A stretch of 64,000 nucleotides of DNA from Bilabrum cf. latius. Its lineage: Eukaryota. The notes beneath the pieces are model-generated. The model was not told the origin of the DNA. It saw only the letters and a program-made list of their open reading frames with translations, and searched no databases. The position numbers and the translations under genes were made by a program. Positions 1,380-49,485 of this stretch are shown here, piece by piece; the stretch's first letter is position 1; each line of letters begins with the position of its first letter. The stretch covers positions 1-64,000 of the forward strand of contig OZ237768.1 in assembly GCA_965178125.1 (NCBI GenBank), written 5' to 3'.

Positions 1380-1388
1380 TCTACCCCT

Positions 1389-14073: not shown

Positions 14074-14158
14074 TGAGATCCGGAGCCGTTTACTGATTCC
14101 TCAAAAGCATCTGACTACAATTACAAATTTCATCCGGGAGTACTTCCAATCATTGAGG

Positions 14159-17100
14159 TTATCCTCTCCTCGATATTCCCGCGCGCCTCCCAGTCCCGTC
14201 AGCCAGCCGAGCTAGGTCCTTGAAACCCAGCCCGGCTGCATCGTCCCACGGCCGACTCTGAGGACTACCCTGCGGCTTCTGCGGCTCTTGAGGCGCTCGA
14301 CTACTGTCTCCTGGACCACCGCGAGCCACCTCTGCCTGCGCCGCAGCAAGCGCACCGGCTGCCGAGCCTACCCCCTTGCTTGCATCTGCAGCTGCCCGCT
14401 GCTGCGTCTCGAGAAGCATCGCCATCACGCCTTGCGTACTGTTGCGGCGGGCACGAGATCTCGCTCTATCTCGCAGCATCGCATTGGCTTGGCGAGCCCC
14501 TGCATCGTGCCGCATCGACAACGGGATCTGCTTCGCGATGCGGCGCTCCATCACTTCAGGCGACTCCGGCACGTGACCCACAGCCTTGGCAAGTAGCCCC
14601 ATAGCTCGCCCCTAGCTAGGTGTCTCGAACTGCTGGGCATAGGTTCGCTTTGGATCAGCTTCCGCCGGGGTAGGCAGAGTGCTGGTCTCGCCTGCCGCAT
14701 TCGAGGCTCCCGGGACCGTCGGACTTGGAGCACGGCTGCGCTTAGCAGTCTTGTGGGTGCGTTTGGTGGTTCTGCGTGGTAAAGCTCGGGCTGGAGGCCG
14801 CGCTGCTTTGTATGTCTTGCCGATATCGTACCCGAGAACACCACCGGGTTTGTCGAAGCCAGGGAGCGGAATAGCCTTGTCATCCCCATCTGCCTCGATC
14901 ACGCTGATCGTGCTGTAGGCCGCATGAGCTCCAAAACCAGTTTCTAGAGTACAAGATCCGTATGGCTTCGCTCTTGTAGCAGCTTGAAGCACATTTGTCG
15001 CTACAGGGAAACGACCAGCTCGATTGAGACCTGTTCCAGGACTCGCATGGGCATCTGATTCGCGTTTCTTGCCGCGACCGTTCGGAGCGGAGGCCTTGTG
15101 GTCCATGCTAGACTCGGTGGATGCATCTCCACGCTCCTGCATGAGCCGGCGCACTTGTCGATCTTCTCGCGGCCCCTATAGATCGACAAGAATTGACCCG
15201 CTTGACACCGATGAGGGAAGGGAAGCGAACGACTACTACACTCCAACTGACCCAAGTCCAGGTCCTCCAATGGCGTCTGACTCAAGGGGCGCCAGCTTGC
15301 TAGCATTACAAGACTCTGCAAGGCCATCAATGCTAGCAATGGCTGAAGCGGAGCCCTGGCTCGCTTGCCGATGCTATGATCGATGATTGGCCAGTTTAGC
15401 AGCTTGCTTGCGGCCATGGGCCTCGGCCAGCACCTTCGATGCTCGGTCAATTGGTGCAACAAATCGGCTGCGTGGTCTGCCTACCTCCTTGGCAGACTGC
15501 TTCTGCACCCCAGCAACCCAGCCAGCAGCATCAAATGGCTCTTGCTGCAGGGCACGCTATTTCCGACCACTACGACAAACTTTCGACGAGATTCCTCGAC
15601 TCTCCATGTGCTCTTGGCCTGGCGATGATTGCCACCCCAAAGGCATTTTTGCCTTGCCAGGCACGGAATAGCGCACTTGAGCAACAATGTTTGCAATTGG
15701 ATTGCATGAAGCACCTGTAGGGCGCGACACCTCGTCTCTAAGTCTAGGCGTCGCCACGGCGCCTTCCTGTGCTGCACCCAAGCCACTATGATAGTGTGGT
15801 GGTTCCCTCGGCAGGACCGATGCATCCAGTGCAGAGCCAATCGCGTCAGTTGCCAGACTTGCTAACCTGATGCTGCCCCCGTGGCCATCACCATCGTCTG
15901 ACAGAGCATCCCAATCCTCTTCCCCCTCGTCCTGTGAACCGTGCATGGAATCACGCAACTCACGTTGCTGCAGCCAGCTTGAGCTAGTACCTTGGCTCTT
16001 TGCTGTGCTACCACGAGGCAGCGCGGCTGTCGAAAACCCTCGAGATCCGGCAGTGCCACTGATCGGAGTCTGGCGGCCGAGTGCCTCTGGGTCTAGAAGT
16101 ATAGGGCCATCTGTTGTGGCAGATGCGCCTTTCGGAACCATTCCAGCCACCATTCCTGCAAGCGCTCCTAAGCTGCGCTCTACATCACCTCCGAGTTGGG
16201 CAGTTGCATTCTGCACAGCAGCACGCTTGTGCTCACGCGCCCGAGCCATTCGCTCTTCCTTGCTCAGTTCCATTGAGTGCCTCTCAATCGATCGCGTTTG
16301 TGCCTCCTCTCGTCGTTTCGCGATTCGCTTTGCCATGGACATCCCCTTGTTGTCTCCTCGCTTTCGCTGCATTTCACGTACTGGAGCCATGGGGTCCAGG
16401 TTGAACGGTCGACCCTGGCGCACTGCTTGCGATAACTCGTCTGCCAATCGTTGGCGCCTCTCCTTTGAAATCTCCGGGAAAAGGACCCCGCTGCCTTCGT
16501 CTTTCAGGATGCGCTCCCGAACGAGAGCAGCTGCACGCTTCCGAATGCGAAGTCGTTCGCTGCGCACATTGCCGGGCAACTGGTCTCCTGCGTCCTCGAG
16601 CCACGCCTCATACTGCGCAATCGCTCGCATAGCTGCCTATCGTTGATCCTCCATCCGCATCTGTCGTTCATCACGCGTCTCCAAGAACTCGCTCGTCTTG
16701 CCCAGCCGGTCATGCAAGGGTTCAAGCTTGCGACGCTGCGCTCGAATGACTGCTCTGGCTTCTGGCGCAGTGGCAGTTGATGATGCCGACGGCAGCATAT
16801 TCAGGGGCTTCAATGGAGATAAAGGCGAGCTAGGATTTGCGCGGGATAGCAACGCAGATCTGGCAAAGTCAGCCTGCTGGCTGTCCAAACCAAGTCCGTC
16901 GAGTATTGAGACATCCAGCGACGGTGCTCTGGTGCTGGCGGATGACCGAAGCGCACCAGATGAATACATCAAAGCACGCTTGGCAGCAGGCCGTGCTGCC
17001 TGTGCAGGTGCAGAAGTAGCCGAAGTACGATCGCGGTTTGTAGTACTTGGTGCATAATTGTGAGACACGGGCACGCTGACAGCCAATTGCTGGCTGGAAA

Positions 17101-20100
17101 AATGACCGCGACTCCCAGAAGGACCGATGCAAGCCTGTGGCAACGGCTTCGAAGCTGGTGCCACGCTGGTCATGCTAGCAACGCTACTCCGCCTGCCCTT
17201 TGTACCAGTTCGGGACGCAAAGCTTCGGTCACCAGCCACGGGGAGGACGGGCTGCAGCGGATTCGTGTCTAGTGGCCGTCTAGATACAAACATGCGCTCA
17301 AACAATGACGAGGTTGCATCCACCGCTGGATCATCCGCCGCAAGCTTTGAGACCGGCAAGCCTCCAGCACGCAGTCTGGCAGGCGTTCTCTTTCGTTGCA
17401 TTTTCATGGATGGAGTCATCCGCCTGCTCTTGCGAAATGCCTCCTCGGTTCGTTCTTTCACTCGCTTGGGACTGTTCATTTCGGCTTGCTGCCGCTTTCC
17501 CTCTCGACGGGCTCTGTGGAGCTGCTTTATCCAGTCCGGCGAGCCCAACGTTTGCCGAGTAAGAGACTACTGCTTTGGCGGGCGCTTCGAGGCAAACGAA
17601 GGGGCCGCAGTTGCTCGAAGATCAGCTCCGCCATGACCCTTTGCAAGTTTCGGGATTCTAGCTGCGTCACTCTTGCTGATTTGCTCTGATCCAGATTCCG
17701 ACTCGATGATTGCACCGTTTAGCTCTTGCACCAGTCGCCCTACTTCCACATGCAGCGCTGCTGGCAGGAAAGGAAGTCTTTGGCGGAGCTCCTCCATCTC
17801 ACCATCCTCGTCGAACAGGCCAGATAGACCAGTGTCAGTTGCATGGAAGGGCAATTGTTTGCCTGGTCTGGACGAACTTGTGGAGGACTTGGGCGAAACA
17901 CCACTTGTAACCTCCGCCCGACGTGCGGCCTGTTTGCGCCTCTCTCGTTTCTCTTGTTGCACTGCTCTCTTTGCTGCACGGAGCTTGTCCACCAGCGCCT
18001 GCACGGTAGGGTCAATGGTGGTCGATTCTGCACCTCCTCTGGCCATTCTCCACGTCCCCTCCATGATTGCAGCATCCTATGCATTGATGCCGTTCCCTGC
18101 ATTCACGTACACCCACCCGCTTCTGACGCTGCCCGAGTCGCCATCGACCACCATCCGACCGACTTCTGCAAGCCACCTGATTCGATTCACTGGTCTCACT
18201 ACGTCAAACTCTGCACGCCTCGCTCTTGCTTCCTGCGTTTTCTCTGCATCTTGGTCTTGTCCTGCGTCGGACTGAGCTGAGGCCTGGCTCTTGCTGGATA
18301 CAGGCTACCGCCGCCTGGACCGCCTCAAGTTGCACCGTTTTCCCGCATCTGCTCTGCGCATGGATTCTTTGATGGGGACAGCAGGCCGTCTATTTCCGGC
18401 GTGCCTGCCGAGAACCAGCCTCCAGGCGGACTCAGACCTGTGTTTCGCAGCAACAGCCAATCTTCTTGCCAGAAATCCTCTTGCAACGCGCTGAATATCT
18501 ACTGCACTAACCTGCTCCAAAGTGATAAGTTTGGCCGCTAGTTTGCGGCCGCAGTGGCCGCGCCAGAGCGCCTGAAATTGGATGATCGTTCTGCGACACT
18601 TGCGAAACCACTGCATTGCAAGCTGCCGTTGCGACTCGAAACGCGATCGCTTCTCAAGCAGCATAGATAGCCATCTCCCAATGCGACCGCGCGCCCAATC
18701 GCGAGCACGCATCACAGGCCGCACCATTGCACGGATCTTGGCGCCTCGGTATAGCCCTTGAATGCGCGCAGCAGCCATATAGCGACCTTCGGTGTCAACG
18801 GATTGGACCACCTTCTTTCTCCTAACTGTATGCGAGCCCTTGGAACGATGAAGCATGATGACTTGCTCGAAACTTCTTCTGGTTTTCCAGCGCCGTATCG
18901 CACGGGTTAACACCTAATTTGCGCGCTTTCGAAGGGCATGCAGCCTGGTCTTCAAGCTTCTCATAAGCCGGTTGATAGTGGCTGCAGCTCGCCGTCGGCT
19001 ATGAGCCTCATGATGCGCCTTCCTAAGCGCCTGAAAGGACCTGTACCATGCCTGAATGGTACTCGCAGCGAGCGAACGCAAACGGCCAAACGCAAATGTG
19101 TGCAAGTAGGATACTCGCAGCCGATCCCTCCACCCGCGCCAGACGGCTTGAATTTGCGTGGCCGCCTTCTGTCCAAGCACTCGGATAGACCCCGGCTGCT
19201 CCACCCACCTGCGATACAACCTTGCCATAGATGTGCCCTACTACTACCGCTGTTGCTTCATTGCTCTAACGATTGCCGAGGCACGGCTCGCATCGCCGGG
19301 GAGTTGTTTCGCGGCGTCTCCACCTTTGGCACCACCGGGTGAGAGGTCTGCCAAGTCCATAGACCCATCCAAACGAACTACGACCGTGGCCTCCACTGGC
19401 ATTTCCCCTGCGATCGTCCTTCGCTCATCCTCGGCCTGAATGAGACCGGACACCCGCATGACGGCCCTTCCGACGGCTTGATGCAGCAAGTGCTTCATTG
19501 TGGCTGCCAGCTCATGCTCAGCCTGTTCCCGTTCTGCCTGGGCTGCTATTGCAGCCTTGCCTTTGGGGCTATCGTCGGCGTGGACGCGGTGAGCCATGCG
19601 GTCTTTGGAGCTGGAATTAGCCTCTGGGTCAAGCACCTGAAGCAATGAGGCAGGCAGGCTTCGCACTGCTGCTTCTCTGATAGTAACCATTTCGTCCTCT
19701 GCGAGCAGGCGGTCAACACCCAGCTTTAGGCCAAGCCTAATAGCCTCGCGAAATTGGCGCGCTTGCTGCTTTTGCTCCTGTTTTTGCGCAAGATGCACTG
19801 ACTTGCTTCGAGTTCTGTGCCCAGACGGCAGGCTAGGACCACGGACCTCGCTGGCATCCGAGCCTGCCGCGCTTCCCTGTTGGGCTTCTGCTTCACCTGC
19901 CCTTGGCTCCTCGCGAGCAAGCCTCTCTCTTCGAGACCTGAATACTGCTGCCTCCGCGTAATAGGCCTTCGCCCGCTCAGCCGGAGTCATCGACATGGCG
20001 TCGCCTTTTCGGAACTCAGCCCACATGGACTTGACTGACTCCCCCTGCTCAACCTCGTCCTCGCTATCATCCTCTTCGGGCGAAGTGGGCTCAACAGAAG

Positions 20101-21286
20101 CGCTCAGCTGGTTGATACCCCGCATTTGGCCACGTTTCGTGCCAGACCGCGCTATAGCGGCTGGACCCCGCGAAGACACCGCCGATGGCCCGAACGCAGC
20201 CGGCGGTGGGCGCAGCGGGTGTGGCCGGGCACCCCCAGAGCCTCCTATTGAGCGCCTCCATTTGCGGAACTGCTCCTTCCCGTATCGCTGCAGTAGGACC
20301 AGATCAATAGCCCGCTAGCGCTAGAGTGCCCGCCTCCTCTACTGCCGCAGGGAACCGGCGCGTCCCTTGCCGCTGGGCCAGCCGGTCGGGTCCCAGCCAC
20401 TGCCAGTAGCACCGGCAGCCGGCCGGTCCTGTGCATGAACCGCGTCGGCTGGTCGGGTGTCCACCACAATCCGCGCATCAGATCGCCAGTCCCACACTCC
20501 CCTGTGCACCGCCCTTGCCAGCAGCCTGCGCACGTCCATGAGGGTGACCCCGCTCCCTGCCCACAGCGCCCCCAAGTCTCTGGCCAAAAAGTGGCGAGTC
20601 GTGGACGGGTCCATGCTGCGCAAATACGCAGAGGCCCAGGCACTCACTCCACCTTGTGCGCTCGCCAATGCTACAGCTCCTGCAGGCAAGCTGGCCTCGG
20701 CCTGGTTGGAAGCCGCTCCGGTCAACCGCTCGCCGGCGGGCTGCCGCGACGAAGTGCTTGCCGCAACGACCAGCGGTACATCTAAGGTACCCCCAGCTCG
20801 CAGCTCATAGGGATCGAAGTTATCCTACCGATCAGCACGGGCTTGCTCTCTCTTGAGCTGCTGCTTCATCATTGCAGACTGCGTTGCAGTGCCAGACATG
20901 GCGCTTCGACTATCCGTTGCAGTTCCGGGCCTGGAGCCATCACTTCGTTCGACGCTATTTGAGGCCGCTATTCGGCTGCTAGATGCTGCGGAAGCCACAT
21001 CGTATTCTGCCAGAGCCATATTGCCATGCTTGTCATACACCTTCGCTGAGCTTAGCCTCGACGCCGCACGCCCTTGCGCATCGCGCATCTTCGGCTACTT
21101 TGAACCAGAATTTTGTTCTGCTACTTGCTACCTCCCCAAGGCATTCGTTGCCTGCACTGCAAGTGCATTGGACGTACCGGCAAAGTTGGAAACTCCACTA
21201 TCACCGCGGCTGGACGGAATAGAGCCACTCTTCTGAGACTCTGATCCACCTGTGCCTGGCCGAAACTGCGCCGCTCCGATCTCCAT
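14159..21286 (-). CDS. Large IQ-motif (calmodulin-binding) protein, about 2375 aa, about 20 in-frame TAG
   Basis: A single frame from ATG 21286 to TAA 14159 links ten track ORFs through TAG only. IQ motifs: AATQIQAVWRGWRDR, AASTIQAWYRS, AAARIQGLYRGAKIR, IIQFQALWRGHCGR, AVDIQRVARGFLAR. Three consecutive TAGs at 19238-19246. Confidence 0.85.
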
Positions 21287-21571
21287 TTAGAGCCGCACGT
21301 TTTATTTTATCAAACTGCACGACACACCGGGTTATGTACGCTCGTCATCGTTAGTGTGCTCCCACACACACCGCGCAAACTGGGACGGGCCGTGCTTTAC
21401 AGTGCACTGCAGAAGATGTACTGCACTGTGATGCAGTGCCTGCCGATCCTCAAGCAGAGCTGCGTACGCAGTTTTGGAGCCACTTCGAGAGTATTGGTTT
21501 ATATTTTGCTGAATTTATAAGATTCATAAGAAATTTCAGTCAAATACAGTGAATAAAGTAGATATTAGGGC

Positions 21572-24500
21572 ATGCAGAATGGAGTCGATGGGTAAGAGAC
21601 TCCAATTGAAACTAGCTTGCACTCCCTGCCAGCCCAACTTGCCATACAAGTTTAGATTCCTTTAATTGATGCCCAGGACAAGTTCAAATTTGTTACATTT
21701 CGCAGCATTGCTGGAGTCGCCGAGCTTCGCGCTACAGACGTCGGTAGGGAGGAGGCTGTAAAGACGGACACGAGTGGGATCCATCCAGATGAATTCATAG
21801 ACATCGCGAGTGATGGACGGCTCAGTGAAGTTGAGATCCAACTTGAGCACGGTAATGCGTCTGATAAGTCTGCTGCAAAGACCGAGATGCATACGGAGTT
21901 CCAGGGGCCGCCCAGCGGAATGGTATTGAGCAGCGCCAGAACTGCTCTTCCAGACCTAGAGAGGCACACTGTATCGGCTAAAAGTCATACTATTCGATCC
22001 AATTAGGCAGCATGGCAGCTTGATGGTATTAGTGGAGGTGATGTTGGCAGTCGTGCCCGTGGGCACGGCGAGTCTGGAGACTCGCCCGTCACCAAGCAGC
22101 CTGAGTGTGGCCAAGCCCCTGATGGTGATCGAGAGCTTACCTCAGATGATTGCAGTCGCGATCTCAGTGCATCAATGCTCCCTGCCTCCTCCAAGCTGCT
22201 ATCACCTTAGAGCCCGCCCAGGCCATACAGCAGGAAGGGTCATGCCAGCCACGCGGCAAGTGCCGGGCCCGTTTCGCGAGCCCACGCGCCCCAGCAGCAT
22301 TCCTTGGCACGGGATGGTATGCATGGCCTGGATTCTACGCTGTCCATGTGTGACGAATCCCAAATGCAACCCACAGCACGCAGGCAAGGCAAGGCCGACG
22401 ATGCAGACCAATCCACTGGGGGCTGTCCGCCCGGCACCTCCTCGGCATCAGCTTCTGCAGCGCTCGAGAGACCCCATGCGCAAGTTTCTCACAGGCATGG
22501 GGGGCAACCATAGAGCATATTAGTCCGGGGTGTCGAGGAGGGGCAGCTGGGTGGGCTCGGTGGGCTTAGAAAGACCCGAGGGGCGTTCAGTGCAACTGGC
22601 TCCGTGGCCAGCGTAGAGCCAGGCTCGCTTCCTAGTCACCCCGCCAAACCAACAGCACGTGTATCACCGCGGGGTACTGCTGGAGCCTTTAGCGATGCTG
22701 GCTCTCAGTCCAACACTGATCGGCTCGATTTCGATGCATGGAGCAAGGACAGGGACGAGTCGCCGTCTCAGTCCATTGAAGGGCGGGAGTATGCAGCAGC
22801 TGGAGACCAGTATGTTCCTAGACAACGCCCCCCAGCACGCGATGGAGTAGACGGGGCGAAGGGGCCGTGTTCGACCGGCAATTCCAGTTCTGATGCGTCC
22901 ATCGCGGTAGACCTGTCTGTGCGTCAACCAGCGTTCGTTTGGGACAGGCCGTTGAGTAAACGTCAAGCACCTCCGAGCGGGCCGGCTGGCCAACTTGATG
23001 CGGTAAACTAGCATGCCGATGCGGATGACGGCCGGGGATCGTTGTCTATTCTTCATCCCCCCCCTTCTCGTACTATGTCCGAGGGCCTCCGGCCGAACTC
23101 ACAGGGACTCAGCAGCTCTCGAGGTCGTGACCGCCTGCGCCAAAGGGGTGCAAGGCTTCCAGGAGACGACACCAGCGGTGGATCTAGTGGTAATATCCGC
23201 CCTACCGTGTCGGTTTCTCATACTCTGGTCAGGCCGCGAGGGCACCGGCGGCTGAGTAGCGATGCGATTGCGTGGTCGCACCGGGAAGCTGGGTTGCAGG
23301 CAATCGATTCTCGAGGTGGCAGATGGTCGGAACACTAGCTGCAGTTCAGCTCCCACGGGAGCGCCCATTCTCTATCTGAGCTAGCGATGGAGACGTCAAC
23401 TGGTCTTGGTGTCCCTCTGGTCGTGCGAAAAGGGTCACACGTCGGTCGGTATCGAGAAAAGGAGCCCAAGACGACGAGGGGTGGCAGCGGCAAGAAATAC
23501 AAGCGATCAAAACGATCGCGCAACCCTGTTCGCGCAGATCGTGGAGCTGCACCATTACAACCGATTTCATCTTCTTCGAGTATCCAAGGGCCGTCACCAC
23601 TAGGCCACCTGCAGCACGACCGTCACTCGCGCCCTGACTCTCGCAGCAGTGCCCCAGATCAAGGCGAACTCCGTAGTCCAGGCCAGTCAGGCAGCCAAGT
23701 GAGCTATGCAGCGCAGGATGTGACCGATGGGGGCCGCGTACGGCGCCGTAGCGTAGATGCCATCTTGGGCAAGCGTGGAGTGCTGCGTATGGAAGTTGCA
23801 GCTGCTACGGGGGCACGCCACATGGGCAGAGTGACCACATTGAACGGTTCTTCCAACACATCCAGCTCGTCGGCTGTGTCAGATGTCAGGGCTTCAGCAG
23901 ATCGGCAAGCCAAGCCTCGTCTGGCCCTTGGGGATGTCCACGACAGTCGTGCCAACTCGGTTGGAAGAGGGTCTGTGAAGTCGGCATTTTCCCGCTCAAT
24001 TCGGAAGACCTCTCCGAAAAATAGCCACGTGCGATCATCGGCGTCTGCATCCGGCAAGGACTCTAGCAGTGAGTCGTTCTCAGCGAAGTCCTCCAGCAAC
24101 GCTCAGCTTGATTCACCTCGCTGTATGCTTGCGAAAGACTCGAAGGGTCATCAACGCTACCAAAACAGCAGGGTGATTGCGTCCCCGAGAGCTGATCAGA
24201 TGCTGCATAGCCCGCGATCTGCGAGATCAAAGTCTCCTGCTGACCCAGATCTCGCACCAGGCAGAAAGCAGGAGCAGTGCGGTGCATCACCGGTGAGCAG
24301 CCCCAGTGCCGAGGCACGGAGCTTAGGTGCGCCTTCGCAACCGGCTGACCAGCCAAATTTGCCAGACAATGGACACGCTCCAAGCTCTATATCAAATCAA
24401 AGCACCAGCTAGCCTGATGCAGGGATTCCTTAGATCGGAATCGGTGGTAGGCAGCATTCTAGCATGGCGCCCGGCGCGGCGCAAGTTCCAGCAAGCGGGC

Positions 24501-27500
24501 TGCCTCAAGTCTCTGCGGGGCAAGCGAGGAATGTCGTACCAGCTAGTGTTTCACCTCATTCTGTACCGTGGAGGTTTCACATGCAGCATCCGGTTGGCCC
24601 GCTTCCACGCCAGAATTACCCGGCATATGGGCATGTGCCGGCTTTCGCTGCTCAAGGATTTCCAGGATAGTTCCCACATCAGCAATAGCCGCCATTGATG
24701 ACGCCCCAAGGCCATATGGGGTGGTCTGGTTTGACTGGTATGCCTATGACGGGACAGCTGCATCCACATGGACAGGCATTTGGTGGGCTAGGGCCGTATT
24801 AGTAGATTCAAGTAATGTAGGGGACGCCTTGGTTGCATCAGCAGCACCAGCACCAGCAGCAGCAACAGCAACACTAGCATTTCATGCAGTAGTAGGCTTA
24901 GAATGCTCAGCGAAAACGTCAAGCCCAGGTGAAATAGTCTCATAATTTGGCAAGCAGATCGCCTACCCTGGCTCCCTTGCCACCGTCATCTGCTCAAATC
25001 GGCCAGAGCCCGCCAAGACAGCCGGGAAGAGCTGGATCGGGAAGCCCCCGCCGTAGGCGGATCGGTTCTCGCTGTTAGCCTTTTCGAAAGAATATTGGCC
25101 AAGCTGCAAGTTCTGTTGGGTCACCACCTAGTCCGAGATCAGGCGAACGACGTACTGCTCGTGGCAGCAAACGCACGGAGAGCGCATTTCCCACGCACGC
25201 CATGAGTCCAATAGGGCACGGGGTTGCAGGGGTCGATGTTGGCCGAGCAGCCGATTCCACTCTATCCCCTGAAAGTGACATGCAGCGCGTATCCCGGCCT
25301 AGAAGCCAACAGCGCCACTAGTAGTCCACTCTCGAGGTGGCTCCTCCCGGGCGGATTGCGGTTGTACAGCCTAATGTCCAATCGAACTCTGTTACATCAA
25401 GTGTAGCCGGAGATTTTGTTCGCGATTCTGGTGCCAACACAGCCAGAGAGAGATCTGTTAGCAACTAGTCAAGTGCTGCATCCAGCTTTGGAATCCATGG
25501 CAGCGATGGTGATACGGACGTGGCTGCAGGGACTGGCGAGTACTCGGATGGAGAAGGAGTCTTCCGTGCCAGTAGACACAGCTTGTTGATAGATTAGGCA
25601 GTAAGTGTATCGGTCGAAAGCTCTCAATACGAGAGCAGCTTTAGGGACAGTAGAGGGATGCACGACGTAACCGCACTTGTAGCTCTGCCCGAAGGCCATC
25701 CATTGCGGTCGTACGAGTCACCTGGACTTGACGTGTCCACAAGCTCAATGGGTAAAATCGGTGCAGCATCGTCATCAGTAGTAGGAAACGCTCGTCCAGA
25801 ATCCAGCGGCAGGTCGGCTGCATTGGAGCCCGAACAGTCCGAACGACCCCCTGAGATGGAATTTGACAAAGCGCCTCAATCTGTTGTCAGTAATTTTGTG
25901 AGCAGCGCATCACATCGCCCATCGTCATCTCCAGAGGCGTCTGGAATCGCTCAGAAAGGAAGACGGACGCCACAGATCCGACCATTCAGTGCCGTTGTAT
26001 CACGAAGCGAGTCTCCGTCAGACTCAGCGGGATTCGGAGAAGGAGAGGTCCCTTCCAACCAAGGCTCCCCTCGCACTAGCAGCATGCAGCCTCCCCTTTT
26101 TATGGGGGGAAGTCCAGGCAGCGTTCCAAGGAAGCTGCGCAGCAATCGAAACCGCCGTCGCCGTGCTCCTAGCAGTGCCTCAAGGGGCTCGCTGTCGCGC
26201 CGGGGCGGACCCAGTGGGGGGTTGGGACTCAGCAATTTTCTCGACGAGCCCCGCAGTTGCACGCCACTTGAGCAGATGCTTCTTGCCGACGACGGCCATA
26301 TTGGGGATGAGTTAGCGATGCAGATTGATGGGGCAGGTAGTGTAAGGTCACACGGCGGGGCTAGTTAGCGGAGTCTTCGGACCCCGGCTGGCACTGAAAG
26401 TGCTGTGGATGGTATAGACTTGATCTGGAGTGTGGAAGGTTGGCATGGTTGGTAGATCCCTACTTCGAAGTCAGGAGACAGCAGCCTGCAATTAGATAAA
26501 CCTGAGGAGGGAAAAATGATCGCTAGAGAGTCCCGTGAGTCTAACGACGTGAATATTCGTGTCAATACGCACAGCATGGTTGGTCAAGGCAATGAAGCCA
26601 GCCAGAGCCGATCCGTGGAGGGCAGCAGCGTAGAGCACAGGGATACCGTTGCTTTGCATGGCATTGTCGACGAGAAAGGCGAACGAGAGGCCCCGCAAGC
26701 CGGTCTTTAGCATCTGCTTTTGCGACCAGTGCACGCCGTGCGCGATCGATTGGTCCTGCCCTCATCACGTGGCGTGCAAGAGGACCCCCTGCACGAACTG
26801 CGCTCATCCTCACCTCCATCTCGGTTGAGGGACGGAGAACATGACCCATCGGACGCCGTTCCTATTCTCACCAATGCGGACGATTCTTCTGCAACTCATA
26901 TGTCTGTGGCTAAGCACGATGGGAGCGTACACTCGACCATTGGACCGCCAAGCAGCAATGAGGGGTTCGGAACGCCCCTAGCCACCGCCATGTCTGTGCG
27001 AGGCAAACCGGTGCACACTAAACCTCGACAATTAGCAGGCATGCGATTTCTATCGTCGTCATCATCACACAGTCGAAGCAGGGCAGGTGACAAGACGCCA
27101 GTTTTGCCAGAGGCGAGCCCTACAGGTCATGATCAACCCCCTTTCAGGGCTGGGCGGCGTACCGCAGTTGAGGGTCCTGCGGGTCAAGTGAGCGCAAGTC
27201 CTGAGTCCGCCAACAAGGGCCCTGATGGTGGTCTCGACTAGGCAACTACGCTCGAGCGACAGGGTACTCAACGCAGCATCGATCTGTCTCCTGCGCCCCG
27301 ACGACTCAGCGAGACCCCCGGCAGGCAGCGCAGCCCGTCGACTCGGTCGCGCAGCAGGTCATACTATGGCCGTCCCCACGAAATGGCAGGACGTCGCACC
27401 CCAGGTCCGGCAGCACAGTCCACAGTTGGTAGCCGACCCGAATCCAGGACAAGTGTGGACATGGCTGGTCTGACAGACGGTGGTGTGCGACTGGAGTTTG

Positions 27501-30500
27501 CTGGCGCGCAGGGTGTGAGGACTCTGCGCCGGGCCTTTGTGGGCATGCACAGCAGTGACTCGCATTCCAGTGTAGCCGACAGTGGTATGGACCGTCGCGA
27601 TAGTGCGCAGAGTTTTGGAATGGCAGGCACGTCATTGTGGAACGATCCTAACGGATCTGGCCGGCGGAGTACCAACACCACTGACTCTATTGACCGACAG
27701 CGGAATGGTGACATCATATTTGGATTCAACCGCCCGAACCTGTGGGGCGATGCGTTTGATGAGCGTATTTTGACTGATGGTTGGATATCATCGCAGGATG
27801 CAGCAGCAGCGTCAATACCAAGGACTGCTAGTAGAGGAGCTGTGGAGGACCAACAAAGTCAGCATGAAGTGATGTCCAGAGTGGTGTGGCAGCTGATGGA
27901 CTCTGGTCTGCAGCAAGAGGCAGGAGCCAGAGAGCCACTGACCCCGCTTGAAGATGCTGACCACGAGCTGGATCCCAGTCCAGCACCCGATGATTCGTCT
28001 CGGCATTGGGCGGCATCGCCCGCTATGCTTTTGTAGCCTGGAGCAGGATCGGTGCGAGAGCACAGGGAGGGCGGGAGTTCTGAAGTGGTTTTTCCAGAGA
28101 AGGGCTTGGGGGTCTCGCCGCGCGGCTCTTCTTGTCACCGTTTGCTGCAGATAGCGTTTGATGGCATGTCGCGTAGCTAGTTCATCTAGCTGGTCGATAT
28201 CGGGCGGTCTAGCCCTTTAGACACGTTTGCGCTTTACGATGGATTTCATAACAGGTCGCATGCGGCCGGGGCTGTCGACCGGATTATCCGGTTGCGCGTT
28301 GGGAAAGCCCAGAAGTATTTGGGTTCGATGCGGACCGAAACAGCATCTGCCTGCATTAATGTTGCAGTTGGCTTGCTGCCTCGGTTGCGGTCTGATTCGG
28401 TCTTGAGGACAGATACTCTCGCGCTCTATATGGAAACTACTGCGTCAGGGCAGATCGTGCCGCTGCCCACTCACCTGCCTGGCCAAGAGTCGAACATGGC
28501 ATTGCGAACTGGGGATGCCGCTAGATCCATGCGAGCACTCAAGCAACTCGCAATCCTCGCCCCGAGGAGCGGCGCCAGCTTTGCCGCACTCGGGCATGTT
28601 CTTCGAGCGCATGAATGTCCTGAACAAGCTGACCGCACGCTTTTCATGGCAATCAAGCGATACCCCGGAAGCCCCAGCGTGTGGCAATCATGGCTGTGGC
28701 TGCGTGAGGCCCAGTTGCTCTCTGCTGCTACGCTCACTTACGGCCTGGAATCACTTTTGCATACTCCCCTTGAGGAGGCAAGGTCGTGGTTCCCGGGTCC
28801 AGCCACCCCCACCCTGCCCCGCATGACTCGTGGAAGTCTAGCATCCATGCTAAATGGGGAGGTTTTGAAGATCCTGTACCATAAAATTGACTCAGAAAGG
28901 GAAGGACTGGCATCCATTGGAAATCACGCTAAGGACAATATGCCACTCGAGCAGGTCTGGGGCATCCTCTGTGATCAAGCTGCAGTTTGGGAGGAACTTG
29001 GAAGCTTATGTAGTGCTTGGATCAAAGCTCTGCAAGAATCCACCCAGGACTCCCGAGCAGCCCCCTCAGCTGTCTACATGGCTCTGAATGATTCCCGCCG
29101 GCCTTTATTGTCTCGGACTCCCACATCTTCGGACCGAGGAGCCAACCCCATGCTTGGGCATGAGACTGATCACCGACCTCGCTCTGCAGGATTGTCCGAC
29201 ACACCTGCGGCTACTGCTGGCCTAGGGGTTCGCACTCCGAGGCACCCAGCAGCGGCAGTAAATTCGGCGAGCATGAGTGCAGATGCTGAATCCAGCTTGC
29301 GAGAGAGGTCAGCAAGCGCATCCACGGAAATTCAACGGCATGGCAACTAGTCTAGATCACAAGTTACAATTGGAGCATCGGCAGCTGCTAAGCACCCGGA
29401 TAGTGGTCACCTGTGTGTGCATGGTAACTTGTCTAGTAATGCCCCGGAGAACTAGCTAACCGCCGGCACACCGGACAGGTCTTCCTACACACAGTCGTCC
29501 ACAGGCAATGTAAGGCGTCAGCAAGAGTTTCGCAGCCAGTCATCCGGAATTGTGATGCGACCCGCAGCGTCTGGCAGTGTTGGCAGTCCGCACTCAGCAT
29601 CCGTGCCCCGAAGTGTGTCCAAGTGGACCTAGCATTCTGATGCTGACCGTAGCATGCAAGAGCAAGACTCTGATCTCGAAGACGACTTTAGCCCCGGGGC
29701 TGAGGACCTAAGTGGTCTGGATCTGGCTGCAACCGCTGCTGATTACGCCGATGATAAGCCCGCCTACAGGGACAATCATTTTTGCAAACGGGACCCCCAC
29801 CGCAGCGGCCGTAGCGCAGCAGCTCGATCTGTCTCAGGTCAAGCAATCGATGCGCCGCGTACATCAAATCTGTCGAAATCCAGGGGAGTTTCCTCTAGGG
29901 AGCTCGTCAAGCTTGGCTAGGTCAGCGCGTCGGCGTCACCGACTCCTGGTCTCTCGCGCTAGCGTGCGCAGTCCGACACAGATACTAGATAGTGGGAAGG
30001 GAATCGCGAGACACTATTGCGGCGGTCGGTTTTGGAAAGTATGCGCAAGGTAATAGGCTTGTACAGGAGTAGGACTCGGGTTCTGCTAATGCAAGCCTTT
30101 CACAGTGCCAAGAGTATCACGAGTGCTAGACAGGCGTCCGGTGCCGTTTGGAAAGTGCTGGCTCAGTGTTCAAGGTACGAAGCAGTCCACGGGGAGAAGG
30201 GACGCGCTCTGCTCTTTGTAGATGCAGCTCATGCCGTATGTGACAGCAAGTCGAAGCATGACCTGCTGCTTGAGAAAGCTCGGGTGCTGGAGGCGTGCCA
30301 TTCCGTGGAGGCTGCCCGACGGCAGTACGCTGCTGTGGCACGATAGGTGTAGGATGGATTGGACTCTGCTCCATCCAAGACCAAGGCTCGGGCCCTCAAG
30401 CAGTTGGCGTGGAAATGCGCTTCGGAGCTTGCTAGCCTGGAGACTAGGGCTGGGAACCACACCGCTGCAGTGAGAATTGTAGCCACGGAGCTGAAACGAC

Positions 30501-32029
30501 AGCCAGAACACGGACGGTTGTGGGCTGCACTCTGCCAAGCATCGTGCCTCGCAGATTGCTCCTCAAAGAAGGGTGGTGCAATGTCGTCTGTACCATTGGA
30601 CAAATTGCTTGCCGAGGCCGTTAGAAGTGCTCCGAGATCTGGAGAAGTATGGGTAGAGGTCGCACGGTATCACTTAAACCCTTGTTCTGGGGCCTACAGC
30701 ACACGGCTTGCCCGTCGTGCCCTACAGTTTGCCCGTGAGTTGACGGGATAGTACGGAGATGCGTATGTTGAGAGCCTGCGACTGCACATGCTCTGCGTTG
30801 TCGGGTTCGCTTCACAAGATGACCCCATGGGGTTGGCGAGCGCAAGGGAGCTACCTGAGGAGCTCGGACTAGACCTCGCAGGTAGGCTATGCCTCGAAGC
30901 AGCACATCGACTCGTGATGATAGACTCCTCCTCAAGCATACAACAACTGGGAACAGCGAGGCAACGAGATGGCAGTCACGTGGCGCATGCATCTGTGCAT
31001 GAAACTAGCTTCAGGCTGCGGTCAGAGTCCGCCAGTGCACGCCTGCGAAGCTAGTTGAGGCACCTCTAGTAGGATGCTTTGGAATAGCCATGGGCCGTTT
31101 CGTGCCAGTCGAACTACGGTCTCATGTTCTCTGTCTGTAGGCCACTGCGGAGTAGCAGTCCAAAGGTAGTGTTGGCAGCAACCTGGGAGGTACTATCGAC
31201 CGAGTTGGCAGCCATGGCCGCTGTGTATGCGTTCGCAGCTGGTGCAGACGTGAGTGCTGCGTGTTCAAGGCTGCAGCAGGAGTTTCACGACCCTGATGCC
31301 AGCGTGGACATATCAGAGTAGCATGCATTTGAGCTGGTGCGCGGCTCTCAGCAGGACACAGTACCGCCGGGCAGCCCCACACGGAAAAGGTCAGCGACCT
31401 TGCAGTCGCTGTGCCAGGGCACACTACAGCCTGGTGATTTCGTATTGGGACTGTCCCGGCCATCAAGGCTGCTTCGAAGTGGAGCGCTCGCAGCTGCAAT
31501 GCAGCGGGAGAGGCAAACGGAGGCTGGACCCAGAGAAACGTGCAGGATGGTACTCTTCAAGCCAGATGAGTTGAGGCGTAGGGACCACAGTTTACGGGTC
31601 ACTAGCGCAGTAGCAATTAGCAGTAGTCTAGCAGCGCAGGCAGACCAGGTCGTCTTTCACGTCCCCACTGGGGACAGTTGCGTCGATGTTGAGCATGCAT
31701 CTCTACACCGAGGCAGTGCACCGCGTTCGCCGGAACTGGCTTCCACGACCAGAATGACGCCAGGTATCGACACAGGCGCAACCCAGGGCCGCCATGAGTC
31801 TGTCAGCCAGACTCCACTGGTGCACCATGCTGATGAAAATAGCTAGCTGCCTCCCGAGGACAAGATTGCACCGGCATCGCAAGACAACTCCGGCCTCGGC
31901 GCAGCCCGGTCGCAAGTACAGATTTCTGGATAGCCACAGCCGCCAAGTGGGGCGGCACCGAAACGAAAGGGGCGAAGGCGGCGCCGCAGAAGGAAGAAAG
32001 CACAGCAGGAAGGTGGTGCTGGGACTTGA
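21572..32029 (+). CDS. Very large (about 3460 aa) low-complexity protein with a Q/H-rich tract and C-terminal TPR/HAT-like helical repeats; about 45 in-frame TAG
   Basis: Sixteen track ORFs (22304 to 31846) share one frame and are separated only by TAG. The frame is open from about 21600 to TGA 32027-32029. The 5' end is uncertain (ATG 21572 or 21579, with a likely GTAAG donor at 21592). HAT/TPR-like segments: AIKRYPGSPSVWQSW, QPEHGRLWAAL, AVRSAPRSGEVWVEVARYHLNP, LTG*YGDAYVE. Confidence 0.8.
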
Positions 32030-32202
32030 CTTCCACCCGCTGGGCATCAGCCCGGCATGTGCTGGTAGTTGCTCCGTGGAGCGGTCTACTTGATTCCGGT
32101 ACCCTCAAGGCTACCTGTGGTCTTCTATGCAAATAGAATGAAATTTAATGGATGTACCGCAATTTGGAATATGTCACATCAACCCCACCTCACGTGTTAC
32201 AG

Positions 32203-34615: not shown

Positions 34616-37600
34616 ATGGATTCCGATGCTCAGCAGAAGGTTACAACGATTCCGAATGTAGATGAAGCTGCAGAATCTGCGGCGGGACGGATACAGTCAA
34701 TCCTGTCGGAGAGTCGAAATGCAAGACAAGCAATGGAGGCAGAACTTGTGAGTCTTGGATGCTGCCTACCTGAGAATCAGTTTGACACTGGATTCTCGTC
34801 GTCTATGCGCTGTGATTGTATACCGAGTGCGATTACGCAACCATTCCCGTTGAGAATATACATATTTTGTTCTCAAGCAGAAATCGTGGGATGATACGAA
34901 GCCCGTGGTGTCCGAAGAGGCGGCACCGCAACCGAAATCTCGATGGGCGTTTAATCTGACACGATCACGCACGCGTTTGTCTTCGGACAGCTCCAGTGGC
35001 CGTGCTGGGAACAACCTTAATGAACAAGTTCCCCGGAACTCGGCTGGTGATCGAGGGCCTGCCCTTGGCGATTTGCCTGAGGTGGATCCCGACTGGGAGG
35101 GCGAATCTTCAGCTAGCAGCAAGGGTGTATTGCCCGATCTAGCACCCCCTGCAGATGATGCGGAAACAGATGCTTTAGAGTAGCAGCACGTCGCATCCCA
35201 TGCTCAAGGACGAGACGAGAACGAGCTCCTGCAGATGCTTTTGGAGCGGGAGGCCCGGCGAGAGGCGAGGGCCATCGAGCTGGCCAGGACTGCAGCAGGG
35301 CGGGGGGCGACTAGTCGAGGGCATGAGGGTGGCGATGGCAGTCGTGGTGCTGATGACAGTGATGCGAAGCAATTCGCTTCTCTGGGTACTTTCGACTTCG
35401 CCGTGGATGCTGCATTCGGTGTGCATATTTCCGATATGCGGCGAGTCGAGCAGGATGACCAAGTCTTTCCTCTTGACGCGGATGCCCCCCCACCTCCCGA
35501 CGAGCCGTCCACGGAATTCGATGGGTATCCCGGTACAATAGAACAGTAGGAGGCGCCACCGTAGGCCCGATGCAGGGTTGATGGTGGCATGGCAGACGAG
35601 GAGCCCGAGCTGGACCGAGAGACAGAGGAGGTGCCAGTGCGCCGGGCAGACGTGGGCAGCGGGGCTGCCTCGGCCGAGGATGACGAGCCCCCTGTCTCTG
35701 AACTGGACTTGCAGCTGGACCTAGGCGGCCTCAAGATACAGGCAGGAGCAGCTAAGCCACGGACAGCCATGACCCCGCCGGGTGCAGCGGCACACAGCGG
35801 GCTATTCACGTACGGGCAGATGCAGGGGGCAGCTCGACTGCGGTACCTCCTCCGGCGAGTGCTCGACGCGCCTATGCTGCTGCTGGTAGAGAAAGAGCCG
35901 CGACTGTGCGAATCGAGCCGCCAAGAATGTGCTGCCATGCGTGGGATCGCAGCGCTGGCTTTAGCCTTCGACAGGCCGACCGCTGCCGATGTATCGAAGC
36001 TGCCGCTGCGGGCCTAGGGGTCGCTGGCGCGATGCTTTGGACTGGACCTACGTCTCGTCGATGACCCCTTCGATGTGGATACCGCAAAGCTAGAAGCCGC
36101 AGATATGCGCGCACTAGTGGCTCCCTCTAGCCTATGCCACCAATCGGAGGAGTGGGCTCGGAAAGAGAAGCAAGAACCCGGCAGTAAAGACGAACCGCTA
36201 GCAGAGCGGGTGCTACGAGATGCCGAGGTTGATGACCTCAGGACCGGGGGCTGGTCTTCACTGCCGGTGTATGTCTGGCGCCTGCAGGTGTGTCTGGCAC
36301 GACTGTTGCGGCGCCGGGCCTACTTGGTTGATGACATCTCAGAGAAGGCTCCGTCGGGCTCAGCCGCTTCGAGTCGGTCGCTCCAACGTATCCGGCGGGG
36401 CTACTTCCGGCCATCGGCATTCCCGCGAGATTCGGTGATGCGTCGCCACGACCGAGTCCTACTGATAGGTCTTGAGCGACAAATAGCTCGTGTAATGGGC
36501 TGTCTCGGAGCCCTGCATCAGCTTGAAAATCGGCGCAATGTTGACGGTGGGGGTCACGGCGTGCTTCTGCTGGACGCGCTTCCTGACGTGCTGCAGGCAG
36601 TCACAGGCGTAGTAGGGGGCGGGGTACAGTTGGCCAAAGAGGGACTGACCTAGACCATTGGTGCGATGCAGTATGGCGCCGTATACTCGGCGCGAGGGCT
36701 GCAGAGAGGTGTTGGCTTCGTGGCGGGAGGTGCGGTGAATCTAGGCAGGGGAGTGGTGTGGTTGCTGGAGGGGCTTGAGTTGCCTGGCGTGGGAGGAGGC
36801 GCTGCTCAAGGCGGGATAGACCAAGGCCACGGTAGTGATGAGGACGAGAGGCACGCTGCATCGCTGACTGGGCGATCGGAACAGGCCGACGGGCACCCAT
36901 CCAGCAGCGTGATGGAGCTCAAACAACAAGACGGACCAGACGGAGGGTTTAGATTCCTGCCAGGTGGCGGCGGTTTCGGTGAGGATACTGCTCCGGAAGA
37001 TAGTAGCAAGGCTGCCAACGCACTGGAGACTCACCAGGAGGCGTCCGGAGGAGCGACAGTCCCTAGGCAATCGGGACGCGAGCGCAGCGTTGGAGGTGAC
37101 ACCGTTCCGTGGTTCTGTTGCTGCTGCCCTGCAGATGCATTGGAGGACTCCGAGATGAGTAGCCAGGAGGACAGTAAATCGAAGGCAGTGGTAGAATCGA
37201 AAACGATTGAAAGAGAGCGGAGCAAGTCCGACCCCATGAAGATTCCTGATCCGTACGACAGCGACAGTGACTTCGACCATGAGCTGGAGGAGCTGCTGGC
37301 GCCACTCATGGGAGAGAGCAGCATTGGCAGGGAGCGGCAGGCCGCTCTAACAGCAGATGCTGCAGGGAACGGTGCAACTGGAAGAGAGTATCCCGCCAGA
37401 TTATCGGGTAAGGCAGGCGGCGTGGACGGTGACGTTGGAATAGGGTCGGGTGGAGCTGCTGCCGCTGCGCAGGACGGTCCCCGCACGAACCTCCAGCGGT
37501 TGGCAGAGGCGGACGAGCAACGGAGGCTTCAAGCAGCAGTTGTACCTCCTGACACTGAGGAATAGGCAGCTGGCAAGGAGGCAGACGGGGCAGGCAAAAA

Positions 37601-40600
37601 GCCACTGAAGCCTCGCCAGCTGCTTCCACTGCTTGTTCGTGCACTGTTGGCCGTGTGCAACCCCAGCATGGCAACGCTGGAACGAGGGCGCAGGATGTAC
37701 GAAGGCGATGTTTGTGATCGAGTATCTCGATCGACGGACCCCCCAACCGCGAGCATGGTTGAATGGTGGCACGCAGAGGGACCAGGGCGCTCTACTGGTG
37801 GTATGCCTGGGACGTCACGGGCGACAGCCAGCAGTGAAGTATAGAGACAGATGGGCGGAAAGCATGCCCTACAGTTTGCCGCGCTGCCTCAAGCATGTGA
37901 AGATCTGCTGAGTGAGTTTTGCGAGCGCTTCCGCATCTCTCGCGTGGCACGGCATGCAGAGCTGCTGCTGGCTCACTGTCAGCTGCTGCAGCAAGCAGTC
38001 GAGGAGCATTGCTGCAAGCAGACCGCTGCTCTTGCAGACCACCTCGCAGCGGTAGCAGCACTGACCGAGTCCCTCGATGCCCTAATTACTGGTCGAAGCG
38101 CGCCGGACATTGCCTTAGGTGGCAGGCGTGATCGGCAGCCGCTTGCAGTTGTGCAGCCCACGCGAGTGCCCCGTGACCCGGTGCCTCAGCTTGATCTGGA
38201 CCTTGCCCAGGCTGCATCGATGCGTCTGCTTGACATAGCCAGCATTGCCACGAGGCGAACCCCGCAAGTACTTGCTGGCACTGATGGCACCCTTTGCCTG
38301 GGTCTGATACTCCGGATCTACCTTGCCAGTCACCGTGTGTTCCTGCGACTCACCCCGAGTGTGGCTGCATAGTCGCTTGCCTTTGGAGCTATGGTCCTTC
38401 GAGACGTGCGATCGTCGCTGCGGAGGGAGTGGCGCATCCGGACACGTCGTCTAAAGCGGGAGTACGAGCTGTCTGGCGAAGGGGGCATGTTCGTGGGTCA
38501 ACTGGCAGTTTAGCGAAAATTGCTGACGAAGCCATCAAAGACGTCTCTGTCTGCATTTCTTGGCTAGGAAAGCGCTGTAAGCGGCCAGAAAGTAGCACCC
38601 CGTTCTGGCCATGCACGGGTGCCAAGCTCGCAGAAGGATCCGCTGCACGTGGCTGCTCATGGCGCCGAAGCAATTTTTGGAGTGGTGCCATCTGGACATT
38701 AGTTCCGGTCTTTAGAAGACCGTGCTGCAATGATGGTCGGTCCCGAGGCGTTTTCGCTATCTCGCGGCACTGCCGAATCGGCGCTTGTGCAGTCGTATGG
38801 CGGGCACCAGGCAGGCAGTTCAAGGCTGGCCAAGATGCTGAAGCTGACTCCTCCTGCTACCGTCCAGGTAGAGCGCAGCAGCAGCAGTAGCGGCACTGGC
38901 AAGGGCGACTCTGTTTTCGTCTCCATGCTCGTGCAGCTGAACCCGGAGCAGTGCAAAGGAGTGCGGGTGATGCAGAACGAGGGACGCATCATTCTCGCAA
39001 CGGTGCCGCATGGGGCCTCAACTTCGGGCTTGCGACTGCTGGATCGGGTCTTGCTCGTCGATGCCATGCCTGCCCGCCCTGCCCGTGTCCACGACGTGCA
39101 ATCCCGGCTGGATCGATGCGCAAGGAGCGGTGCACGCGGCCGCCCCATTGAGCTCGTTGTATCCCGCGCGTGCCGCCCACGGCAAGCGGCGGTGTTTCGC
39201 ATGTTGGAAGCCACTCGAGCAGTCGACGGCCCGAGTACAATGCTGAAGGGGGTGTCCGGTGCCGACGCTAGAGCAGCACCGGCGGCCGCTGCGCTGCAAC
39301 TAGAGACAGAGCATAAGAGCTCGGCAGCTCGGAGCGCTACACGGGTACAGAGCATCAGTTGCTTGGCAGTGGAGCTCGTGGTAGGCCGCGCGGTTTCTCT
39401 GCTATCCGGCATCATCGCGGAGCGGGCGCGCCTGCGAGTAGTTGCCCGGTGGCTTTCTGCAGAACCACTGGACGCGAGAGGAGTACAGGAAGTGATCGAA
39501 GCTGAGGAGAAGAGAGCGGACGAAGAGGTAGCCGGGCGAGTGCTGCCACCTGCCGTGGCACTTCGCCCGCTTGCTGCTCGACCTCTTTCCGAGTCCACTG
39601 GCGGGCCCGGAGAAGGGGCTGCTCGCACAACCGAAGTGGCTGATCTGGGATTCGTCTCAACGGCGCAGGCTCGGCATTCGTAGTTGCTGACAGGCCTTTA
39701 GGCGCAAGAACTTGTGAGTCAGATTGAGGCTCGACGAATCGGGCGCGTGTCGCTGAATATGGCTGTAAGGCAGACCAACTGGGAAGGAGAAAGGGTGCAA
39801 ATTGCGCTACCGCCAGCTGCTCAAGTCCTGGCTCGCGAGCAACTGAGTTCGGGCAAAGACTCAGTTGGGAGTCAAGTGCCTGACCACGAGATTCTGACCC
39901 AGTCCAAGTAGGTGTGTCTCGTGGTGGAGATCAGAGATGATTCGCAGGCGGCGCTGGGTCGCGGCGGTAGTGTATCGAGCGAGAGGAAAGATGGGGGAGG
40001 TGAGAGAGTCGGCAATAGCGACACTGAGGACGAAGATGACCAGGGGACGCCACTGCCGGCTACGCCGTCCAGTTCCACTGAGCCCGCGCCTCGTCGCCGA
40101 CTCCGAGGCGCGCTGGTAGGACACATGATGTGCATCTTCCAGGTGAGACCTCTACAGGACTTGCGCGAGCCCGAGTTGTTGTCATGGCGGCAGGACTTGA
40201 GGCTGCTGGGCAAGGCCAGGCAGAACATGGAGGCGGCCAAGAAGCGTACCGAGAATCCGGTACGTGCAGCAAGCGCGGGGCCGCAGCCTCGTCCTGAAGA
40301 AGACACGTACTGCAGCCCGGCACTTTAGGTTGATGCAGGGCTCACACTCTCTCCATTTCTGGCAGCCACAGATCATGGAGCAATCCACAGAGCCTTTATT
40401 GAGTCGCAATCGGAATCAGGGCATGCAGCAGGCTCGGGCCAGTCGCAGGACTCGAGGCAAGATGTGGCCACTGCGAGTCCCGGGCACGAGGAAGAGGATG
40501 TGGTTGGCGACTGGAGCGACGAAGACTGTGCAGAGGCGGTTCTACGGCTGAACGATATGCTGGACTAGGGTGTGGGAGCTGAAGGGCGACGTGGAAGTTA

Positions 40601-49320: not shown

Positions 49321-49485
49321 CGTGTGTATGGTGGATGAAAAGCATGGCAGCAACTTTATATCGGAGTTTGTACGGTGTGATTCGGTGGAGAGAGCCGGCA
49401 AAAACCTATCGCTGGCATTAACGCAACAGCGCGATTTTGTGGCTGCAAATCAGAGGAATTTATTGAAAACACGGTACATGGGCCC

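Follow-up and report, generated by a model that had tools for sequence, protein, structure and literature searches.

What does the codon UAG mean in the nuclear genome to which the first 64,000 nucleotides of contig OZ237768.1 belong (Bilabrum cf. latius, assembly GCA_965178125.1; this whole stretch is hereafter the window)? Under the standard code, only open reading frames (ORFs) of moderate size are found there. Once TAG is read as sense, both strands open into ORFs of 3470, 3259, 2375 and 1793 codons, with 46, 29, 20 and 13 in-frame TAGs respectively. From a glutamine- and histidine-rich tract at 24668-24940 (+), within the longest of these ORFs, a sequence-only reading had proposed that UAG stands for glutamine (Gln). 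The proposal is supported here by alignment to homologues and orthologues, a type of evidence which that reading did not have. Judged from these alignments, UAG is very probably an ordinary Gln sense codon in this GC-rich nuclear genome, where UAA and UGA would remain the stops, and the best explanation for the tract is a translated Gln/His-rich low-complexity segment.

TAG faces glutamine in homologous proteins

The ORF at 2725-4389 (-) has 13 database homologues of 30-39% identity. Its TAG at residue 501 (2887..2889, -), which adjoins an invariant Trp in the motif TW-X-GGIV (X standing for TAG here and below), faces Gln in all 12 homologues covering the column. Its other TAGs lie in variable columns (two) and in an insertion or probable intron (two).

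Most TAG-to-Gln alignments come from a C2-domain gene at 34905..44684 (+; 3259 codons, 29 TAGs, TGA end). An exhaustive profile search with its C-terminal 1160 residues returned 11 relatives, among them fragments of a relative about 95% identical, others of a relative at 55-70%, and a single homologue at 30% (P0017). The ~95% relative carries Gln at two of its three readable sites, TAG 2164 and TAG 2392. At TAG 2295 and again at TAG 2478 its fragments break off immediately in front of the codon, which is what a standard-code gene caller would produce on meeting a TAG retained in this relative. Moreover, two metagenome contigs, L001 and L002, encode orthologues with 58-61% protein identity to the C2 gene; they have a GC content of 0.58-0.60 and in-frame TAGs of their own. 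Fourteen window TAGs could be aligned with them, and these face CAG or CAA six times, TAG once, Asn twice, and Ser, Glu, Thr, Arg and Asp once each. Thus window TAGs meet Gln-type codons (CAG, CAA or TAG) at 7 of 14 positions, compared with 14 of 34 for the genuine Gln codons of the window and 30 of 842 for all other residues. TAG differs from the non-Gln residues (Fisher P = 4.3e-7) and is indistinguishable from the Gln codons (P = 0.75).

Several individual sites illustrate the pattern. A TAG-TAG doublet at C2 residues 2478-2479 (42336..42341, +), in NNAYYCR-X-X-LYSLLGA, has CAG CAG as its counterpart in the ~60% orthologue, and QQ in P0017; it lies within a 15-residue motif otherwise identical in that orthologue. 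TAG 2001 (40905..40907, +; AMQS-X-LLAAAVQ) is CAG in L001. In place of TAG 2295 (41787..41789, +; ALFR-X-SVAELE), one of the two sites just before which fragments of the ~95% relative break off, the orthologue has CAA.

To aligned TAG columns taken together a BLOSUM62 likelihood was applied. Over 32 aligned observations it gives Gln 28.7 bits, Lys 10.5, Glu 10.2 and Leu -30.3; over the 25 observations at window TAGs, Gln 25.7, Glu 9.8 and Leu -24.5. The lead of Gln over the next residue is therefore 15-18 bits, in a small homology sample of three genes with 17 window TAG sites. Among the 25 observations, Gln is found 11 times, Glu twice, Ser once and Leu never. Two variable columns were entered by their modal residue only (Lys in 3/13 homologues, Thr in 4/10). 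For ORF 2725-4389, two TAGs were left out of the calculation, one within an insertion and the other in what is probably the tail of an intron. Also left out were the TAG of ORF 1803-2990, whose region is variable and gapped, TAG 275 of ORF 11908-14073 (Ser of bovine ODAD3, in a low-confidence tail) and TAG 2578. At the position of TAG 2578 the orthologue also has a TAG.

Codon usage was followed in 16 ORFs of the window, where TAG accounts for about 15% of Gln-type codons. Its share is 0-4% in the adaptin, STI1/TPR and GH2 genes (G+C at third codon positions 0.68-0.78) and 14-22% in long disordered proteins (0.54-0.63). TAG thus seems to be used as a minor synonym, scarce in genes that are conserved and codon-biased and frequent in those for long, disordered proteins. 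Of TAG-TAG doublets there are 8, where a random distribution of TAG among the Gln-type codons predicts 1.8 (Poisson P = 6e-4). They may have arisen by triplet slippage or by local C-to-T transitions in CAG runs. This fourfold excess in the 16 ORFs is accompanied by a single TAG-TAG-TAG, at residues 681-683 of the IQ-motif gene.

Attempts to name the residue from its neighbours were less informative. Neighbour-profile likelihoods gave a top residue that changed with window size (Cys, Trp, Asn, Lys, Ile or Gln) and were dropped as evidence. His and Asn codons are enriched about 2.2-fold at ±1 of TAG. Paralogues were also sought within the window, and self-BLAST of its six-frame ORFs returned low-complexity noise only.

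UAA and UGA still terminate

The 16 ORFs examined end 13 times with TGA, three times with TAA and never with TAG; 16 genes are a sample too small to settle whether any gene ends at UAG. Within their 18264 codons, 136 in-frame TAGs were counted, with no in-frame TAA, and no in-frame TGA interrupts ORFs of up to 3470 codons. The CAA:CAG ratio in the same ORFs is 248:550, from which about 60 in-frame TAAs are predicted if TAA were also Gln. None being observed, the change concerns TAG alone.

Individual termini agree with this. In the GH2 exo-beta-D-glucosaminidase-like gene (46519..49401, -; one TAG) the C-terminal Ig domain finishes precisely at the TAA, which is therefore a real stop. In the case of the IQ-motif gene (14159..21286, -; 2375 codons, 20 TAGs), a transcript-like contig ends 7 bases from the TAA at 14159. 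The third TAA end, at 2725, is in a probable intron, so that the other two are the supported cases. As for TGA, that of the C2 gene falls where the proteins of its relatives also end. We conclude that UAA and UGA still terminate translation and that UAG is read as sense. A code with both TAA and TAG as Gln was considered and is ruled out by the absence of in-frame TAA beside 136 TAGs and by the TAA ends of the GH2 and IQ genes.

In the zf-C2HC gene at 52676-53941 (-), a TAG precedes the TGA by two codons (…GGA-X-V-stop). It is the sole place in the window where a TAG stop and read-through are indistinguishable.

UAG is retained in transcript-like contigs

The whole stretch is contained in four runs of one sample, and 97% of it in run X5, from another study. 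Contig boundaries in X5 follow the genes. One contig, 14152-21346, is an exact match to the IQ gene with short flanks; a second one stops at 14119, 46 bases past the ODAD1-like gene, and a third at 32149, 120 bases past the long ORF 21617-32029. Sequence depth in X5 varies from gene to gene. In addition, a GT..AG intron of 114 bases at the 5′ end of the long ORF's gene (21591..21704, +) is spliced out in X5 only, where the joint 21590->21705 is found; the joint is missing from DNA run X1. Over at least 61 TAG codons, as counted from piece coordinates, the X5 pieces listed are identical to the window. Considering that boundaries follow genes, that a spliced joint is present and that no base differs, the X5 contigs are transcript-like, and the mRNA therefore keeps UAG. 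The lack of differences over these TAG codons, and of any gap or joint in the Gln/His-rich tract, also argues against RNA editing, an intron or an assembly error.

The four runs compared equal the window wherever they match, bar one unrelated 129-base repeat copy, so that no CAG/TAG polymorphism within the species was countable in them. The sole differences listed, at 20657-20706, stem from this divergent 129-base contig, which is found in DNA runs too. Segment 20615-20743, inside the IQ gene, has this second divergent copy (18 differences) on other contigs in all four runs compared, and represents a dispersed repeat or a paralogous segment. The convergent genes ending at 14073 and 14159 are 85 bases apart; with transcript-like contigs ending at 14119 and 14152, their 3′ untranslated regions would measure about 46 and 7 bases, provided that the contigs are complete.

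The Gln/His-rich tract

The tract at 24668-24940 belongs to the ORF at 21617..32029 (+; protein P0001, 3470 codons, 46 in-frame TAGs, TGA end), to which no Pfam family corresponds. Read in the frame of this ORF, its 91 codons comprise 10 TAG, 13 CAG, 6 CAA, 9 His codons, 0 TAA and 0 TGA, and the remainder of the ORF contains 36 TAGs in 3380 codons, or 1 per 94. The counts given by the sequence-only reading (10 TAGs in about 90 codons, and elsewhere in the gene 1 per 75-100) are thus reproduced. The unusual density which it reported also holds: when the 46 TAGs were placed at random along the ORF, a window of 91 codons with at least 10 of them was obtained with a frequency of 0.0001 (20000 permutations).

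This density says less about the residue. Gln-type codons make up 29 of the 91 codons (32%), and TAG is 10 of these 29, only marginally more than its share of 0.198 elsewhere in the gene (binomial P = 0.046). The excess of TAG in the tract is thus mostly due to Gln-type codons being a third of it, with some local clustering into TAG-TAG doublets in addition. The mixture of TAG with CAG and CAA, which had been taken to imply Gln, is real, and as an argument it is suggestive only. By eye, several contexts in the tract fit Leu equally well, and context alone could therefore not decide the residue. As to the similar contexts that had been cited elsewhere in the window, those at 25319 (same ORF), 49855 (DHHC gene) and about 5170 (EF-hand gene, -) do lie in supported ORFs. 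The fourth, VSA-X-QV at 44841, is intergenic, within a stretch of 408 bases where TAA and TGA interrupt its frame, and is no coding example.

No homologue of P0001 residues 2150-3300 was found among the long proteins searched, and none of residues 900-1700 among the shorter ones. Because P0001 has no detectable homologue, there is no relative with which the tract can be compared.

Weighing the alternatives

Several observations weigh against UAG being Gln, and they are of three kinds. The first concerns the residues themselves. Half of the aligned window TAGs (7/14) face non-Gln residues in the orthologue, and the five TAGs of the orthologue face Lys, Arg, His, Lys and Val in the window, never Gln. 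L001 and L002, which are 98.6% identical, differ by one TAG/CAG, which also speaks for Gln, and by one TAG/AAG. The ~95% relative has Glu at TAG 2360, and GH2 TAG 107 faces Asn in a solved bacterial enzyme (CsxA). An empirical likelihood drawn from the small orthologue alignment alone places Asn (8.8 bits, from 10 Asn positions) 0.8 bit above Gln (8.0). The second kind concerns context and coverage. Enrichment of Gln codons beside TAG, which had been suggested as a check, does not appear in the window ORFs once the tract is masked: for Gln at ±1, ±3 and ±5, the ratios to background are 0.87x, 1.07x and 1.19x (z = -0.4 to 1.4). The homology evidence comes from other genes, and none of the 46 TAGs of P0001, including the 10 in the tract, was aligned. 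The third kind concerns the machinery and the RNA. ARAGORN found 0 tRNA genes in the window and the eRF1 gene is not among the window genes, so that neither the decoding tRNA nor altered recognition motifs are seen there. Run X5 carries the label ‘RNA? (probably DNA)’; its RNA status rests on the spliced joint and the gene-following contig boundaries, and none of the runs containing the stretch is catalogued as RNA.

These observations could be accommodated by UAG encoding another single amino acid, for which Glu, Lys, Arg and Asn would be the best alternatives and Leu the a priori rival. The Asn, Ser, Glu, Thr, Arg and Asp found in the orthologue, together with the Glu, the Asn of CsxA and the empirical model just mentioned, would favour it. 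Yet the three best-conserved sites are all Gln (in 12/12 homologues at one, in 2/2 lineages at each of the others), Gln stays ahead of Glu and Lys by the margin given above, and TAG meets Gln-type codons as often as genuine Gln codons do. The non-Gln residues facing TAG seem, as read from the alignments, to be polar and common exchanges of Gln in fast-evolving proteins, and none appears at a conserved column. We consider another single residue very improbable. In the case of Leu, natural to the eye in several contexts of the tract, the likelihood is 50-59 bits below that of Gln. A Leu code of the exLh type was rejected, no conserved Leu being found at TAG.

A second alternative, to which we give a similarly slim chance, supposes no dedicated tRNA: with an eRF1 that no longer recognised UAG, near-cognate tRNAs (Gln, Tyr, Lys) would give a mostly Gln, mixed product, or UAG would be an ambiguous, context-dependent stop. 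That the tRNA and eRF1 are both outside the evidence from the window leaves room for it, as do the few sites where Lys faces TAG, the TAG/AAG polymorphism and the TAG close to the TGA of the zf-C2HC gene. But a mixed product would be hard to tolerate at 136 in-frame TAGs in 18264 codons, one of them at an invariant Gln of a globular protein. Tyr faces TAG once only, in a poorly aligned stretch, and an ambiguous stop does not fit with each ORF end being TGA or TAA.

The weakest possibility is that the tract or the TAG-bearing ORFs are not translated as read, owing to an intron whose length is a multiple of 3, a pseudogene, an assembly error or U-to-C editing. The tract is only 273 bases long, and by a rough estimate about 1 in 10 non-coding stretches of 273 bases would be free of TAA and TGA in one frame; furthermore, X5 record 9 covers 24772-26718, and for the 104 bases with which the tract begins, coverage is given by the depth table only. 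Still, this explanation is highly improbable: the frame is free of TAA and TGA over 3470 codons on both sides of the tract, no gap, joint or base difference occurs in the tract in X5 or X1, X5 depth in bin 24388-25051 resembles that of neighbouring bins, listed X5 contigs span most of the ORF, the stretch recurs in the four runs of the sample, and in-frame TAG is also present in the C2 gene of L001/L002 and of the ~95% relative. UAG as a Gln sense codon in translated genes is thus the reading retained in what follows.

The chromosome end and its genes

The window begins with a telomere at 1..1388, 231.8 copies of ACCCTA, that is (CCCTAA)n, read on the other strand as (TTAGGG)n, which marks a eukaryotic nuclear chromosome end; one unit near base 75 is irregular. 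Five copies of a 54-base subtelomeric repeat follow directly, telomere and repeats occupying 1-1658, and the first gene begins about 150 bases further inward. GC content is about 60%, ranging from 0.53 to 0.70 along the window. The TAG-bearing ORFs and their neighbours encode Pfam families C2, IQ, EF-hand, DHHC palmitoyltransferase, GH2 exo-glucosaminidase and alpha/beta hydrolase, in addition to an AP-1-type adaptin (two exons), an ODAD1-like coiled coil, zf-C2HC and STI1/TPR. Judged from these eukaryotic families, together with the telomere and GT-AG introns, the window is a nuclear chromosome end of a GC-rich flagellated eukaryote with few introns. Rfam gave 0 matches at gathering score in the window.

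Besides the genes treated above, an EF-hand gene is found at 4687..10068 (-; 1793 codons, 13 TAGs, TGA end). The ORFs at 1803-4389 (-) occupy two frames and together form one secreted-looking protein; the frame change near 2990 suggests an intron. This protein family is without a Pfam match and shows strongly conserved motifs, e.g. WDLSGRFFPYMGMFLPP, NDPEGTQ and VVDRSDW; its 13 database homologues have about 700-850 residues. The AP-1 gamma-type adaptin gene at 57096-60228 (-) is split over two frames (Adaptin_N profile positions 64-296 and 298-404), with an intron or frame change near 58900-59320; its conserved parts are without TAG, and a protein-atlas search with one exon led to generic eukaryotic AP-1 gamma clusters.

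Two repeats also deserve mention. The protein at 32203-34125 (-) has a WH2 actin-binding motif near its C-terminus and a long (Pro-Ala)n tract, coded by a repeat at 32780-33222 (73.8 copies of a 6-base unit) across which reads could not be placed. At 61969-64000, about 25 tandem copies of an 82-base unit reach the window end. They are open in several minus-strand frames, 82 not being a multiple of 3 so that the three frames rotate, and the array is probably a satellite and not a gene.

Comparison with known codes

A nuclear code in which UAG is Gln and UAA and UGA are stops is already known, and the present genome very probably uses it too. PMC5304391 and PMC11687900, in the passages on such codes, name the fornicate Iotanema spirale, the ciliate Protocruzia tuzeti and two phyllopharyngean ciliate lineages. 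The window resembles them in having UAG at conserved Gln positions and in keeping both UAA and UGA as stops. The expected mechanism is also alike. According to the relevant part of PMC5304391, a tRNA reading UAG without UAA must have anticodon CUA, one mutation away from tRNA-Gln(CUG), and eRF1 changes are typical of such codes without being universal. By extension from that work, UAG would be read here by a tRNA-Gln with anticodon CUA, unable to pair with UAA, and eRF1 would have lost or weakened its recognition of UAG. Stop usage is a difference: the same paper describes UAA as the dominant stop in I. spirale, whereas TGA ends 13 of our 16 ORFs.

The code with UAG alone as Gln corresponds to NCBI table 15. 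The window does not look like ciliate macronuclear DNA: it is GC-rich (~60%), includes a (TTAGGG)n chromosome end, has numerous long genes, on either strand, and most often stops at TGA. The lineage looks different from those described, though it may prove to be one of them.

Codes in which both UAA and UAG are Gln are listed in the part of PMC11687900 concerned for many ciliates, ulvophycean green algae, hexamitin diplomonads, Streblomastix and Amoeboaphelidium. Our case is like them in that Gln has captured a stop codon one transition from CAG or CAA, and unlike them in that TAA, found at a domain end and at a transcript end, is not sense. Similar in another respect are systems where UAG and UAA no longer share one meaning. 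These include the rhizarian exLh and some ciliates with UAG as Leu, Scotinosphaera with UAG as Ser (PMC5304391 and PMC11687900, in the sections on these lineages), and an uncultured ciliate with UAA as Lys and UAG as Glu (PMC10553269, in its account of that code). The residue differs, however, as the 25 window-TAG observations with their 11 Gln indicate.

Amoebophrya sp. ex Karlodinium veneficum is likewise a eukaryote with in-frame stop codons. In the portion of PMC12005148 dealing with its code, all three stops are read contextually, in-frame stops occur in about half of the gene models, and the authors think it likely that UAA and UAG are Gln. As a match for our genome it was rejected: the same portion presents it as much more AT-rich than other Amoebophrya and with three stops in frame, compared with TAG only here. 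A full-text literature search, with supplementary files outside its scope, found no description of a GC-rich non-ciliate eukaryote with UAG as Gln.

Evolutionary implications

Codes that give UAG and UAA different meanings are rare, about eight lineages in the accounts given by the pertinent sections of PMC5304391, PMC11687900 and others, and they bear on the co-evolution of release-factor specificity and suppressor tRNAs. We tentatively propose, with somewhat less than even confidence, that an undescribed non-ciliate GC-rich lineage acquired UAG as Gln independently while keeping UAA and UGA, and that the change may be old enough to be shared by the ~60% identical relatives represented by L001 and L002. 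For annotation there is already a practical consequence: the standard code breaks the genes of this genome at TAG, and the database fragments of relatives that end at TAG show that this has happened. If the proposal is true, this would be a rare UAG-only lineage in which tRNA-Gln(CUA), the eRF1 changes and the spread of the new codon from CAG could be read from a complete genome. Such a genome would show them directly, because a telomere-bearing long assembly exists. A further non-ciliate case with chromosome-scale DNA and environmental relatives would allow the change to be dated, the tRNA and the eRF1 substitutions to be found, and the spread of a new synonymous codon to be measured.

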